Part shown: one piece after another, positions 56,657 to 64,000 of the stretch | Layout of the letters: every line of letters begins with the position of its first letter | Position numbering within the stretch: the stretch's first letter is position 1 | The notes under the pieces: model-generated | The model's database searches: none | The model's input: the letters and a program-made list of their open reading frames with translations, nothing else | What the model was told of the DNA's origin: nothing | Translations under genes and position numbers: made by a program | Origin: a phage | Reading direction: 5' to 3' (one strand) | Assembly: GCA_010671865.1 (NCBI GenBank) | Contig: GCA_010671865.1_4083.1 | Length of the DNA stretch: 64,000 nt

Positions 56657-57835
56657 ATGTTACCTTTTGCAAGAATGGTTAAGTACGGAAATATTGTACC
56701 TGGTGTACCAACACCAAAAGATTTCTTTTTGGATGTATCATCCGGCAAACCTACTATGTTGATGCTTTTGGATAACGGCGAAGTATGGGGTTGTAGTAAT
56801 GATGGACAACTATTAGGTTTAAACACTACCGCGTCAGCATACGGTAAGCCATACTTTGTTATGGAAAATGTTAAGTTAATGTTCGCGTCAGTGTGGGGGA
56901 CATTACTTATCACTAACGATAATAAAGTGAAGTACACTGGTAGACAAACCATGTTTAATGGTTCATCTAATTATTGGAGTACTTTTCAAGATTTTACAAC
57001 GAAGTACACGACTGTTGGTATTGACATAAGTACTATAGAAAAAGTTGGATTCAATACTGGTACATTATTCCTACGCACAACTAATGGTGATTTATGGGGT
57101 CATGGAAATAACGCTAATGGTTATTTCGGAAAAGGAAATACCGTGGCGAATTACACACCAACCAAGATCAAGACTAATACATTAGATTTTTGGTTAACTA
57201 ATGGGAATGCAATTGTACAAACTGGCCCTAAAGAATTCTATGCTACTGGTGATAATTATTATTATCAAATGGGTGTTACAACTACTGGCAATATAACAAC
57301 ATGGACACAGATTTTTAAGGACGCTACTGATGATCCTGAGTTTGAATATAATGCAATGCGAACAAGTCAAGCAACATTAATACTTTACGGTAAAGGAACT
57401 ACATTCTACGCAAGTGGGAGAAACTATATGAGTTCATGGGGTGTAGCTGGTGCACCAGTGAATGTTAATACCACAATATATAAAGGAACGTTACCATTTG
57501 TACCCGGTGATTTAACATATTTTTATGCTGGTCGAGAACAAGCATATTGGACTAACTTAATCATTGATACTAATGGAGTTCTGTACATAGCTGGAACAAA
57601 AGATGGGGGTGGTAGTTCAAATGCACCTACATTTGAAGTATTACCGACCCCAAGTAGTGCAGTTGGGTTCAAATGTGGCACAGCAACACGTTCTTATGCT
57701 ATAATGGATTGTACTGGCAATCAATTTATGTACGCACGTGGTACAGCTTTGTCAGACCCTGCTGGCTTTACACCAATGAGTACCCCATTAAATCATACAT
57801 GGACACACATAACAGATTTTAAATTTAACCGATAA
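56657..57835 (+). CDS. RCC1-like repeat (beta-propeller) protein with conserved N-terminal leader, paralog 1
   Basis: track ORF 56639..57835 trimmed to MLPFARMVKYGNIVPG (AGGAGGG RBS); repeated GxNxxGQxG-type Gly-rich motifs. Confidence 0.6.
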   Translation: MLPFARMVKYGNIVPGVPTPKDFFLDVSSGKPTMLMLLDNGEVWGCSNDGQLLGLNTTASAYGKPYFVMENVKLMFASVWGTLLITNDNKVKYTGRQTMFNGSSNYWSTFQDFTTKYTTVGIDISTIEKVGFNTGTLFLRTTNGDLWGHGNNANGYFGKGNTVANYTPTKIKTNTLDFWLTNGNAIVQTGPKEFYATGDNYYYQMGVTTTGNITTWTQIFKDATDDPEFEYNAMRTSQATLILYGKGTTFYASGRNYMSSWGVAGAPVNVNTTIYKGTLPFVPGDLTYFYAGREQAYWTNLIIDTNGVLYIAGTKDGGGSSNAPTFEVLPTPSSAVGFKCGTATRSYAIMDCTGNQFMYARGTALSDPAGFTPMSTPLNHTWTHITDFKFNR

Positions 57836-57841
57836 TATTAT

Positions 57842-57870
57842 GCCAGTACTTGATACTGGCATTTCTTTTT
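57842..57870 (+). terminator. intrinsic terminator between RCC1-like paralogs
   Basis: GCCAGTActtgaTACTGGC hairpin then ATTTCTTTTTG. Confidence 0.6.
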
Positions 57871-57906
57871 GTATTAAATATAGTATAATGAATAAAGGAG
57901 GGAAAT
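57871..57906 (+). promoter_or_regulatory. conserved promoter-like/RBS cassette
   Basis: GTATTAAATATAGTATAATGAATAAAGGAGGGAAAT immediately before ATG; -10 TATAAT, weak -35. Confidence 0.45.
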
Positions 57907-59109
57907 ATGTTACCTTTTGGAAGAATGGTTAAGTACGCAAATATTGCACCAGGTCCAGAACCTGTAGAGTTCTCAGATGTTTTACAACAACATTATACAA
58001 ACTGTATGTATCTCCATAACCCAACTAATACTTTATATGGTTATGGTAGTAATAACTTTTATCAATTTGGTCTTGGGAATTCAGCAGCAGTTTCGTCATT
58101 TACAGTACTTGCAAGGAACTGTGCAGCCTTTTGGCTTGGTGTTCAAGGTTCATTGATGATTGATTTGGATAATAAAATATACTACACTGGGTCGGTTGGT
58201 GCATTTTCTGATTATGGAGATGCAACACCTGTTAATGGTTATTTGACAACATGGACTGATGTTACTGTTGCATTTAATAAAATAGGTGTTATGGCTAATA
58301 TGATCAAGAGTGTATATATAGGTGAAAGTACTAGAATATTATTAACCGATGGTAGAGTAATTGCGTGTGGAAGAAATACTAATGGTGAATGTGGCTCTGG
58401 GAATAAAAATTCCATCCCTACACTCACAGTTATGACTAATATGGGTGAAGTTACACATATGGCATGTTCATTACAAGGAACGCACTATATCAAATCAAAT
58501 AAAGATGCATGGTTTTGTGGTAAGGATAACTTTGGTGAAAGTGGATGTGGTGGTAGTTCTGTTGTATATTTGAACAAATTCGTGATTAGTAATGTAGAAC
58601 ATATTAGTACTACATACGATGTTACTTGGTGGTTTACTACTGGTGGGTCTGTATATTATAGCGGGGCTAACAGTTCTGGACAAGCTGGTAATGGTACGAC
58701 TACATCGGTAAATCAGCTAACACCAATTAGGAACACATCGGTCACGGTTGATGTAAGTAAGTACAGTACTTTTATTTGTCCAAGTAATATGGGAAATGCA
58801 TCAATTGGTGCACCTATGGCACAATACGCACCATATGTTAGAAGTAGTGGTGCTAACTCATATGGTCAAGAAGGTAATGGAACTAATACATTAGTTAGAA
58901 CTTGGAATATTTTTAATCTTAGTGCAATAAGTGGTGGTTATGACAATGTTCTTATGGCATCTAAAGATTGGAGCAGAACCATAATAATTACTAAAGATTA
59001 TAAATTATATGCATGTGGTGGCTGGAATGGAAATGGTGGTAGATTGCCAGATGGCACTTATAGTATTACTACACTAACATTAATGCCATCGCAGTTATGG
59101 CAACAATAG
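57907..59109 (+). CDS. RCC1-like repeat (beta-propeller) protein, paralog 2
   Basis: 400-aa ORF; N-term MLPFGRMVKYANIAPG; repeats such as YGYGSNNFYQFGLGN, CGRNTNGECGSGN, SGANSSGQAGNGT, SGANSYGQEGNGT. Confidence 0.65.
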   Translation: MLPFGRMVKYANIAPGPEPVEFSDVLQQHYTNCMYLHNPTNTLYGYGSNNFYQFGLGNSAAVSSFTVLARNCAAFWLGVQGSLMIDLDNKIYYTGSVGAFSDYGDATPVNGYLTTWTDVTVAFNKIGVMANMIKSVYIGESTRILLTDGRVIACGRNTNGECGSGNKNSIPTLTVMTNMGEVTHMACSLQGTHYIKSNKDAWFCGKDNFGESGCGGSSVVYLNKFVISNVEHISTTYDVTWWFTTGGSVYYSGANSSGQAGNGTTTSVNQLTPIRNTSVTVDVSKYSTFICPSNMGNASIGAPMAQYAPYVRSSGANSYGQEGNGTNTLVRTWNIFNLSAISGGYDNVLMASKDWSRTIIITKDYKLYACGGWNGNGGRLPDGTYSITTLTLMPSQLWQQ

Positions 59110-59117
59110 GAGGGAAT

Positions 59118-62693: not shown

Positions 62694-62728
62694 TATTAAA
62701 TATAGTATAATGAATAAAGGAGGAATTT

Positions 62729-63916
62729 ATGTTACCTTTTGCAAGAATGATGAATTATGGGAATATTGCCCCAGTACCACTTCAAATTAAGAAAATAATC
62801 CCAACTGATTTAGATGTTGTGGTTCTGTATACGGATGGTCAACTATATGCACGTGGGAATAATAGTTTTGGGAAATTCGGTAGAGGAAACAACACTGCAT
62901 TAAAATCATGGACATTAATTAGAGAAAACGTTAACGATTGCTGGCTTACACAAGGAACTTTATTAGTAAAAGACAATGACTCAAATTATTATTACTGTGG
63001 ATATGGTAGTCATATTGGTTTATCAACTAGTACTACTACGTTTTTAAGTTATAACCAATATATTCAAAATTTGTACACACAAAGTTCAAGTACTTCAATT
63101 AAACAGATGTATGGAGGTACTACGTGGTTTACTTTCTTAATGGACAATAATACAATATGGAGTACAGGGTGGAACAGTGCTAGACAATTCGCCGATGGAA
63201 CGGGAACTACTTATGAAATAACCGATGGTTCATTTGTAAAAGCGGTCACACCTAATGTTGATATTGCACAAATACAGTCAACAAATAACTGTGTATTGTT
63301 GTTTGATAAACAAAATAATTTATATATTGGTGGTGTTACATCCGGTATAAGTTCCGCGACTACATGGACTTCATATAATCAATATACTTTATATCAACCA
63401 AATACAACATACACAAAAACGTTACAATACACAGGATGCTCAACTGGTGCAGTAAGTGCTTTAGTTGAAAATCCAAATACAGGAGCACGTCAGTTCCTTG
63501 TCGGTGGGTTAGCTAATAATGGGGCATGGGGAAATAACACTACATCTAGCTCTGTTAATGGAGTTTTAGGAAATAACAGTACGACGTTACCACCCGGTAC
63601 TTTGTATTCAATTCATACTGGATACCCACCACAATCTAGTATACTAATTACGAGTACTGGTGTATATGCAACTGGTTTAAATGCCAGTAGTTATGCTGGT
63701 TCATTGGGTATTGGTACTAGTGCAACTGTTGGTAAGTTTACTGCATGTCCAATGCCTACACAAATAACATATTCTATGTATGATAAAATAAAAATATATA
63801 GAGGTTCATATCGTACATTTCTAACTGATATGAAAAATATATATTCAACCGGAACTTATGATGATGGTGGTCCTAGTACAACTAGATATGTACTAGATAC
63901 ACCCCGACAATTATAA
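62729..63916 (+). CDS. RCC1-like repeat (beta-propeller) protein, paralog 6
   Basis: 395-aa ORF; N-term MLPFARMMNYGNIAPV. Confidence 0.65.
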   Translation: MLPFARMMNYGNIAPVPLQIKKIIPTDLDVVVLYTDGQLYARGNNSFGKFGRGNNTALKSWTLIRENVNDCWLTQGTLLVKDNDSNYYYCGYGSHIGLSTSTTTFLSYNQYIQNLYTQSSSTSIKQMYGGTTWFTFLMDNNTIWSTGWNSARQFADGTGTTYEITDGSFVKAVTPNVDIAQIQSTNNCVLLFDKQNNLYIGGVTSGISSATTWTSYNQYTLYQPNTTYTKTLQYTGCSTGAVSALVENPNTGARQFLVGGLANNGAWGNNTTSSSVNGVLGNNSTTLPPGTLYSIHTGYPPQSSILITSTGVYATGLNASSYAGSLGIGTSATVGKFTACPMPTQITYSMYDKIKIYRGSYRTFLTDMKNIYSTGTYDDGGPSTTRYVLDTPRQL

Positions 63917-63923
63917 TATAATA

Positions 63924-63953
63924 GCCAGTACTTTGTACTGGCTTTCTTATTTG
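63924..63953 (+). terminator. intrinsic terminator between RCC1-like paralogs
   Basis: GCCAGTACtttGTACTGGC hairpin then TTTCTTATTTG; approximate. Confidence 0.55.
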
Positions 63954-63987
63954 TATTAAATATAGTATAATGAATAAAGGAGGAATT

Positions 63988-64000
63988 ATGTTACCTTTTG
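63988..64000 (+). CDS. RCC1-like paralog 7 (first 4 codons only; runs off window end)
   Basis: identical cassette then ATGTTACCTTTTG (MLPF...). Confidence 0.5.

Follow-up and report, generated by a model that had tools for sequence, protein, structure and literature searches.

Several described systems resemble, each in part, the tandem array of RCC1-like genes analysed here, which occupies positions 56657-63916 of a 64,000-nucleotide stretch of phage DNA (contig GCA_010671865.1_4083.1; this whole stretch is called the window below). In T4-type phages, reiterated PeSL units of ~70-120 bp, composed of a terminator stem-loop, a promoter, a Shine-Dalgarno (SD) sequence and a start codon, populate hyperplastic regions and bound the insertions, deletions and replacements between close relatives (PMC2839356, PMC4122927). 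The array shares both traits, with 212 of 216 endpoints of its similarity blocks in the zone of linker and tag. It is set apart by a promoter-like element that departs from the strong sigma70 early consensus of PeSLs (-35, -10 and AT-rich UP), lacking a -35 box and carrying an array-specific TAAATA-N3-TATAAT; by homology that continues past the start codon for 48 nt, where it encodes a peptide tag; and by units that flank one tagged set of putative binding proteins, while PeSLs flank unrelated ORFans and form encapsidated mini-circles.

The T4 internal proteins (IPI-III and Alt), headed by a capsid-targeting sequence (CTS), offer a second parallel: they too bear a short conserved N-terminal peptide that is portable between folds, come from a polymorphic locus and occur in few copies per particle. 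The tag sequences are dissimilar, however, and the cargo in the array would be large rigid binding folds instead of small basic proteins. Assuming a T4-like specificity, we found no prohead-protease site after the tag: the tag contains no Glu, and none is conserved across the paralogs in the next ~10 residues.

Sets of multiple receptor-binding proteins, such as the depolymerase arrays of the Klebsiella phages RaK2 and K64-1, the CBA120 tailspikes and phi92, are tandem sets as well, whose members keep a conserved N-terminus while their C-terminal binding parts have diversified; the sets vary between relatives, and RaK2 belongs to the same phage group as the array phage. In the array, however, the anchor is a peptide of 12-16 aa modelled with low confidence, not a folded domain of at least 100 aa; the bodies are predicted to be single globular propellers rather than trimeric beta-helices or fibres; and the locus lies outside the tail module. 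The RaK2 genes that adjoin the array flank by top PHROG matches (~309-315) are distant from the RaK2 depolymerase cluster (gp526-534).

The inner-body families of phiKZ are, like the array products, paralogous jumbo-phage proteins found in particles, and the related phage phAPEC6 has an inner body. Its authors suggested the RCC1-like proteins as inner-body candidates and found no sequence similarity of phiKZ inner-body proteins to any phAPEC6 protein (PMC7247149). The composition of the array proteins argues against DNA association, however, and relatives with one copy or none package similar genomes.

Finally, RCC1-like domain (RLD) proteins such as UVR8, HERC2, RPGR, RCC1 and BLIP-II share the seven-bladed propeller and a GxNxxGQLGxG-type repeat. 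The phage members differ from them as charge-poor, single-domain proteins of ~380 aa with an extra N-terminal tag of 12-16 aa and 15-21% identity to solved RLDs. With RCC1 proper, which is marked by a Ran-binding face with a beta-wedge and by basic chromatin-binding elements, they have the fold alone in common (14-18% sequence identity), in a host without Ran or chromatin; there is no reason to expect from them the activity of a Ran guanine nucleotide exchange factor (Ran-GEF) or any activity on chromatin. Altogether, the array combines features of PeSLs, CTS tags and receptor-binding protein sets, and fits the full definition of none.

A tandem array of RCC1-like propellers

Positions 56000-64000 are 99.4% identical to Escherichia phage SP27 (LC494302, 347 kb, Asteriusvirus, PBECO4 species), and close matches of the window come from 37 phage records of the PBECO4/121Q/phAPEC6 group. 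The first-pass annotation, a model's reading of the letters alone, had placed six complete rightward genes here, and all six coincide with coding sequences (CDSs) annotated in SP27. With the SP27 start codons they encode 392 aa (gene 1, 56657-57835), 400 aa (gene 2, 57907-59109), 369 aa (gene 3, 59118-60227), 379 aa (gene 4, 60298-61437), 382 aa (gene 5, 61509-62657) and 395 aa (gene 6, 62729-63916). This true range of 369-400 aa replaces the ~380-430 aa given earlier; a 433-aa open reading frame (ORF) from 60136 is an in-frame upstream over-extension of the gene that starts at 60298.

The array had been expected to run beyond the window, and it does: SP27 holds 13 rightward CDSs over ~14.7 kb, seven of them past the window edge, with leftward genes on both sides that form one divergent and one convergent junction. 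The window locus is the first half of this hyperplastic array of an Asteriusvirus jumbo phage. The next gene begins within the window with 13 nt (ATGTTACCTTTTG, 63988-64000, plus strand) and had been taken for a seventh RCC1 paralog. Its SP27 counterpart, R7 (27989-28726 of the SP27 locus extract), is instead a 245-aa glycine-rich-domain protein of PHROG 4474, a different fold behind the same tag and cassette as the window genes; it is homologous end to end (33%) to a protein of Salmonella phage Munch that passes Pfam Gly_rich_2.

The existence of the array is already known, a point that the first reading overlooked: GenBank records annotate it and several papers mention it. SP27 labels the six genes 'regulator of chromosome condensation RCC1' or 'putative DNA condensation protein'; published mentions comprise 'eleven similar RCC1-like proteins' in phAPEC6 (PMC7247149), multiple copies in 121Q and PBECO4 (PMC5259590) and five RCC1-like proteins in Serratia phage BF, and the authors of fEgEco12 saw differences between close relatives. 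In the searchable papers, which do not cover that on SHEFM2K, we found no description of the common tag, of its presence on other folds, of the dedicated linker or of linker-bounded exchange.

All six window proteins exceed the gathering score (GA) of Pfam RCC1 (PF00415) and/or RCC1_2 (PF13540), and PHROG 4219 ('regulator of chromosome condensation') matches six of six over their full length at 1e-50 to 1e-114. Gene 1 scores 28.1 bits with RCC1 (GA 21.7; PHROG 1.2e-50), gene 2 39.1 with RCC1 and 29.3 with RCC1_2 (2e-106), gene 3 32.8 with RCC1_2 (1.6e-108), gene 4 25.7 with RCC1 and 31.5 with RCC1_2 (7.5e-114), and gene 6 22.4 with RCC1_2 (GA 22; 1.6e-102). With the whole-domain Pfam family WD40_RLD the six reach 62-96 bits, under its cut-off of 150. 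Searched against the PDB, a profile of the six proteins matches the RLDs of RPGR, HERC1/2 and UVR8 at 1e-16 to 1e-20.

The AlphaFold2 model of paralog 2 is a complete seven-bladed propeller (predicted local distance difference test score, pLDDT, 92.4; predicted template modelling score, pTM, 0.90). Its Foldseek matches are UVR8 (E 2e-24, TM score 0.75-0.82 over ~385 aligned columns) and also HERC2 RLDs, RPGR and RCC1, with a TM score of 0.69 to the human protein. Paralog 1, the weakest hidden Markov model (HMM) match of the six, was modelled at pLDDT 69.5 and pTM 0.73, the N-terminal ~220 aa confidently and the C-terminal third poorly.

Domain families, PHROG, PDB profile and structure models agree, and the six window proteins are RCC1-like propellers, as had been proposed, and probably seven-bladed throughout. 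The proposal started from glycine-rich units at regular spacing. Both peptide strings then quoted, SGANSSGQAGNGT and CGRNTNGECGSGN, lie in gene 2, where the strict motif is clear (residues 155, 205, 253 and 315, at a spacing of 48-62 aa); in the other five genes it is degenerate, with 1-3 occurrences each. In the family alignment the periodicity holds, beyond mere low complexity, as seven conserved Gly positions (G47/95/155/205/253/315/371) 48-62 residues apart. The bodies are also as strongly diverged as first described, with pairwise identities of 27-34% (median 29%); ten full-length SP27 members share 25-37%. The fold per se is ordinary: in an exhaustive HMM search, 69,020 cluster representatives match its profile, mostly giant multi-RLD proteins. 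A text match to 'RCC1' in an Ostreococcus virus paper was a false positive, RCC being a culture-collection strain prefix.

Tag, linker and exchange of modules

Conserved N-terminal residues, overlooked in the first reading, are common to RCC1 and non-RCC1 members of these arrays. This tag of 12-16 aa has the consensus M-[IL]-P-F-x-[RK]-Φ-x-x-Y-G-N across host genera, and SP27 array members start MLPF[AGVT]RM[VIM][KNM]Y[GA]NI.P. In paralog 1 it reads MLPFARMVKYGNIVPG (coding positions 56657-56704), in paralog 3 MLPFGRMIMYGNIVPG; that of paralog 2 is encoded at 57907-57954. Codons 1-16 are near-invariant in 12 SP27 members: conservation starts at the ATG and is lost after codon ~16, and pairwise identity at third codon positions is 75% in codons 1-16 and 34% thereafter. 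In both structure models residues 1-20 lie outside the propeller at a pLDDT of ~50, with at most a short helix at residues 4-11.

The tag is found in 13 of 13 array CDSs of Munch and seven of seven of Erwinia phage Hallingskeid, as M-I-P-F-x-[RK]-[IML]-x-x-Y-G-N. Besides RCC1-like proteins, its bearers include a Kelch propeller (1.5e-32), ConA-like/Laminin_G_3 proteins (31.4 and 37.4 bits; GA 27.6), a Gly_rich_2 protein and one array member (Munch_233) that falls in PHROG 6011, 'virion structural protein'. Outside the arrays we found none in the rest of the 64-kb window or in 50 kb of head, tail and baseplate genes of phAPEC6. A tag pattern specific to the coliphages retrieved only 121Q itself; a generalised DNA pattern, used instead, occurs in four IMG/VR contigs only (three of 360-378 kb, one of 109 kb), at most 11 times per contig, in arrays with a period of 1.1-1.2 kb and with no stray matches.

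Homogenisation by gene conversion as the sole cause of this conservation was considered and rejected. In Munch and Hallingskeid the peptide is kept despite synonymous codon variation for Pro, Phe, Tyr, Gly and Asn, and most members are translationally coupled with no cassette upstream; the tag is therefore more than homogenised DNA. We infer from these patterns that it is a portable signal, selected as a peptide. In Vequintavirinae homologues the alignment begins only at residue 24, behind a different N-terminus, MLEMLNLG. Three tandem RCC1-like genes of Escherichia phage A5-4 of that subfamily (8935-12433 of its locus extract) have it in common; from residue 24 on they match window gene 2 at 37% identity, and they stand amid small hypothetical genes, not in a tail module. 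This lineage seems to carry, in parallel, a tag of its own on the same fold.

Upstream of genes 2, 4, 5, 6 and the next gene (63988) lies a full unit of 70-72 nt. After the stop codon, it runs AATGCCAGTAC-loop-GTACTGGC-TTTCTTATTTG, TATTAAATATAGTATAAT, GAATAAAGGAGG-N4-5 and ATG. The five copies, all on the plus strand and all with GGAGG, are found at 57836-57906 (terminator hairpin 57840-57862 with T-run, folding energy -12.0 kcal/mol, z -3.6; TAAATATAGTATAAT at 57875-57889), 60228-60297 (hairpin 60234-60252, -12.4, z -3.0; a variant promoter-like element, AAATATAGTATAAC), 61438-61508 (hairpin 61444-61462, -12.4, z -3.6; TAAATATAGTATAAT at 61477-61491), 62658-62728 (hairpin 62664-62682, -10.0, z -3.4; TAAATATAGTATAAT at 62697-62711) and 63917-63987 (hairpin 63923-63943, -13.3, z -3.8; TAAATATAGTATAAT at 63957-63971). 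The energies thus span -10 to -13.3 kcal/mol and the z-scores -3.0 to -3.8, each hairpin being followed by a T-run.

The earlier statement that each gene sits in the same expression cassette holds for these five and fails for two. Gene 1 has only the promoter-like/SD half (TAAATATGATATAAT at 56626-56640, GGAGG, ATG; no hairpin), since it abuts a divergent control region (56555-56656), which also carries, on the minus strand, a sigma70-like promoter for the leftward neighbour. Between genes 2 and 3 lie just 8 nt (59110-59117), which hold an SD alone; as hairpin and promoter-like element are absent from this junction, gene 3 would be read through or coupled from gene 2. In 121Q, the counterpart of gene 3 has its own cassette.

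The depositors of the G17 record annotated these hairpins as terminators. Among 62 cassettes compared, loops vary freely (3-8 nt), and Munch and fENko-Kae01 show three different double-sided compensatory stem variants; free loops and compensated stems together argue for selection on hairpin structure. TAAATA-N3-TATAAT occurs five times in the window against 0.12 expected, and a 26-mer of the cassette five times against 0; among all loci compared, the element is confined to these arrays, that of Munch included. A canonical sigma70 promoter was ruled out for the cassette: a sigma70 scan passed over its sites, and no -35 box lies 16-18 nt from TATAAT.

Late structural genes of phAPEC6 carry (T/C)ATAAATA, in agreement with the ATAAATA late motif known for CBB and GAP32 (PMC5259590), and the small leftward genes at 36-50 kb have consensus sigma70 promoters and a 5' hairpin. 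By sequence, the array element is a third kind of control element in these phages. As a separate observation, ~25 tiny genes (45-120 aa) on the minus strand at 36400-50200 each stand behind a near-identical unit, AAAAGTACTTGCAA-N17-GTATAATGTTTTACATC, a 5' hairpin GGGGAGAA..TTCTCCCC and an SD. This consensus sigma70 promoter with a poly-G/poly-C stem-loop matches the published definition of T4-type PeSLs better than the array linker does.

We compared the arrays of SP27, PBECO4, SHEFM2K, G17, 121Q and phAPEC6. These phages are at least 97% identical in the common parts of the region, yet which members the arrays hold, how many and in what order differs from phage to phage. SP27 R5 is the first member in 121Q and phAPEC6, R1 is absent from PBECO4, and some members of G17, PBECO4 and phAPEC6 are just 30-65% identical to any SP27 member; shared members are 98-100% identical. 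Of the endpoints of blocks with at least 90% identity, 212 of 216 fall from -80 to +55 of the tag ATG, a zone covering 12% of the array length; the endpoints are phylogenetically non-independent, so the binomial p-value of this count is indicative only. Left ends of blocks lie at -125 to -1 and right ends at +25 to +75 relative to the tag ATG.

Between SP27 and phAPEC6 the synonymous divergence (dS) ranges from 0 to 0.48 per module, and the ratio of nonsynonymous to synonymous divergence (dN/dS) is 0.06-0.34 throughout. The array members are under purifying selection. Rapid gene-wide positive selection as the source of the diversification noted in the first-pass annotation is out at these ratios. 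The spread of dS with a low dN/dS marks the modules as old functional alleles, swapped as whole bodies with linker and tag as the junction: the diversity consists of old differences between alleles, which recombination has redistributed under purifying selection.

Most members of the Klebsiella phage fENko-Kae01 and Munch arrays are 98-100% identical. They differ by a swapped first-slot module (31%), a ConA-like member that is moved and frameshifted, and one missing RCC1-like member. Their long tail fibres are ~99% identical, yet the hosts of the two phages belong to different genera (PMC11218385). We dropped the pair as a natural host-range experiment, the three-module difference being too small and too confounded.

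We propose that the repeated unit is an autonomous gene module, made of the hairpin/TAAATA-N3-TATAAT/SD linker, 12-16 tag codons and a divergent single-domain binding fold: an RCC1-like propeller in all six window genes, a Gly-rich domain in the next, and Kelch or ConA-like/LamG domains in relatives. The ~120 bp of near-identical linker and tag DNA would serve as a crossover site for homologous recombination, shuffling modules between co-infecting relatives in the manner of T4 PeSLs. Such an architecture and its shuffling are very probable.

Particle association and its interpretation

In CsCl-purified virions of phAPEC6, which its authors place in the same species as SP27, eight RCC1-like proteins were detected by electrospray tandem mass spectrometry with 1-5 unique peptides and 3-17.5% coverage (PMC7247149). 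They include gp549 (Table 1 there), the 92%-identical orthologue of window gene 5. The orthologues of R3, R6 and R7 are unannotated in the phAPEC6 record and so were beyond the reach of that search. The single homologue of GAP32 (GAP32_001) was likewise detected by mass spectrometry (PMC5259590), and ghost particles of three Erwinia Eneladusviruses contained four 'DNA condensation proteins' of 38-41.6 kDa at portal-like counts of 3-25 peptides (PMC7760394, table S5). In an ultrafiltered preparation of fENko-Kae01, three RCC1-like members gave 2-3 spectra, next to 52 for the portal and 30 for RecA (PMC11218385, Table S3); the best-detected array member there, with 17 spectra, was the tagged Gly-rich homologue of the gene at 63988.

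The virion proteomics called for by the first-pass annotation thus already exists, and it shows the family reproducibly present in particles at low abundance. Given this detection, the earlier pair of candidates, host recognition or injected effectors, is kept as the right one, neither being demonstrated. Expression is probably late, or middle plus late, an expectation drawn from the particle proteomics.

The composition of the six proteins bears on all readings. Charged residues make up 11-14%, against 24.7% in other ORFs of the window; Gly (3.2-fold), Trp (2.3-fold) and Thr (2.2-fold) are enriched, and Glu and His are 4-fold depleted. Net charges run from -4 to +4 and isoelectric points (pI) from 5.1 to 8.6; by charge, pI and charged-residue content, none of the six has the basic composition of a DNA-binding protein.

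In the reading we favour, the tag would act in docking or targeting, directing whichever fold it heads to a single common site in the particle, and the charge-poor Gly/Thr/Trp-rich bodies would be ligand-binding heads, most likely for host-surface or environmental ligands, that modulate adsorption or host range; they would not condense DNA. We give such tag-docked, particle-associated external binding heads a probability of roughly 45%. They are preferred over ejected proteins because of the lectin-like and propeller folds, the composition, the retention in ghosts, the lack of a protease site after the tag, and a precedent for the fold at tail-fibre tips: in other phages, annotated tail fibres end distally in RCC1-like propellers (Pseudomonas Littlefix and PollyC; PHROG 20500/11922).

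Several points weigh against external heads traded in this way. The known anchors of receptor-binding proteins are, to our knowledge, domains of at least 100 aa and not 12-aa peptides, and a portable N-terminal tag would fit internal packaging of the T4 CTS type equally well. Peptide and spectrum counts are low (1-5 unique peptides in phAPEC6; 2-3 spectra in fENko-Kae01, under RecA or thymidylate synthase). Such enzymes appear in these very lists, and abundant soluble proteins may have been carried over. The array lies amid early-type small genes, remote from the structural module; its control element joins a TAAATA core to a -10-like TATAAT, without the full late (T/C)ATAAATA and without a -35 box. 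On the side of exchange, the block endpoints are, as said, not independent of one another. A tandem duplication in phAPEC6, a two-gene unit of exactly 2,423 bp found at both ends of the record (6178-8598 and 1-2360 of its two locus extracts), may be an artefact of circularisation or assembly: the GenBank record has 352,598 bp and the published genome 350,175 bp, a difference of 2,423 bp equal to the duplicated length. Finally, CBB has tail whiskers yet no RCC1 homologue (PMC5259590), which leaves an external whisker structure unexplained by the family and rules out the propellers as the 'hairy whiskers' of phAPEC6.

A bolder form of this reading, which we hold only tentatively and consider rather unlikely, is plug-and-play display. 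The 12-residue peptide would mount at least four unrelated folds (RCC1-like, Kelch, ConA-like, Gly-rich) on a common, limited class of virion sites, so that each particle would present a mixed, possibly stochastic sample of 11-16 heads, traded via the terminator-promoter-tag linker.

The rival that survives best, though we think it improbable, holds that the tag is a capsid-targeting sequence: the cargo would be packed into the prohead or inner body and enter the cell together with the DNA, there to bind and neutralise host defence or host-takeover targets, and the diversity would reflect an arms race with host systems. A short portable N-terminal tag on unrelated folds is the very logic of T4 capsid targeting, and phiKZ inner-body proteins are paralogue families too. 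Detection in particles at low copy suits such proteins, as do the neighbouring early, host-takeover-type genes and a hyperplastic recombining locus of the kind typical of anti-defence genes; phAPEC6 has an inner body, for which its authors proposed the RCC1-like proteins. On the other side, the phage has a T4-type prohead protease, yet behind the tag there is neither a conserved Glu nor an (L/I)-x-E site, and a rigid closed propeller of ~40 kDa seems ill-suited to passage through the tail tube. The proteins are kept in Erwinia ghosts at portal-like peptide counts, the same fold serves as a tail-fibre tip elsewhere, and the ConA-like, Kelch and Gly-rich folds, like the charge-poor Gly/Thr/Trp-rich composition, look extracellular or adhesin-like.

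Less probable again are non-structural intracellular proteins: cytoplasmic scaffolds, decoys or inhibitors of host proteins, with a particle signal due to carry-over and a tag for stability or for recognition by a phage chaperone or AAA+ protein. The mass spectrometry lists with array members also hold thymidylate synthase, RecA, SSB and topoisomerase, and the fENko-Kae01 members score under such enzymes; the array stands outside the structural module amid early-type genes, eukaryotic and bacterial RCC1-like domains are mostly intracellular platforms for protein interaction, and the phage encodes a ClpA-like ATPase. Carry-over would nevertheless have to explain many paralogues detected at once in four independent studies with different purifications, CsCl gradients and ghosts included. 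One tagged member falls in a PHROG annotated as virion structural protein, and the promoter-like element has a late-type TAAATA core, unlike the sigma70 early cassette of the neighbouring small genes.

That the proteins organise or compact the 350-kb genome in the capsid, as DNA condensation or inner-body proteins, is barely credible. The phage label 'DNA condensation' is taken over from eukaryotic RCC1, whose name reflects Ran-GEF genetics and not DNA compaction. In favour of such a role stand the database labels themselves ('putative DNA condensation protein' or 'regulator of chromosome condensation' in SP27, 121Q, Munch and BF), speculation in the phAPEC6 and BF papers, and the presence of members in particles; against it stand the near-zero net charge, the pI of 5.1-8.6, half the normal content of charged residues, and an array copy number of 0 in CBB and 1 in GAP32 against 11-16 in other phages, with similar genomes packaged. 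Member content also varies freely among near-identical phages, which is hard to square with an essential role in packaging.

Neighbouring features and significance

The palindrome AGTACT occurs 258 times in the window against 19.8 +/- 4.7 expected (13-fold); the next palindromic hexamer, TTTAAA, occurs 83 times. Its preferred form is CAGTACTG. It is present in array hairpins (for example at 57845, 60244, 62667 and 63927), in both cassette types and in coding sequence, there often in phase as AGT-ACT (Ser-Thr). It is dense at 32-56 kb and near-absent at 16-24 kb and 28-32 kb. Such an excess hints that the hexamer is recognised by a phage-encoded function that binds, modifies or recombines DNA.

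On the minus strand, positions 1-25600 are packed head to tail with ~50 leftward ORFs of 100-220 aa, which abut or overlap and leave hardly any gaps; they may be another expanded family or a long operon. The following stretch (25600-32400) has no ORF of at least 100 aa, no tRNA genes and an AT skew of -0.21 to -0.23; its part at 28-32 kb is free of AGTACT. SP27 annotates many small genes in the adjacent 36-56 kb. Rfam and tRNA scans found nothing. Two antisense ORFs on the minus strand, at 56605-56952 (115 aa, in gene 1) and 61739-62065 (108 aa, in gene 5), are unannotated in SP27 and probably spurious.

RaK2-like jumbo phages spend 4-5% of a 350-kb genome on this array, and its sole published interpretation, DNA condensation, rests on a transferred eukaryotic name that the composition contradicts. 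The tag, the dedicated linker and the exchange of whole modules turn an annotated curiosity into testable hypotheses. Should the tag prove to direct docking or packaging, foreign proteins could be loaded by this compact handle onto therapeutic jumbo phages or into them. Particle display, if true, would give phages a host-range or adhesion repertoire of a new kind, unlike receptor-binding proteins built as fibres or spikes. If the heads affect host range, the array would become a target in choosing or engineering Asteriusviruses against E. coli O157, avian pathogenic E. coli and Salmonella.

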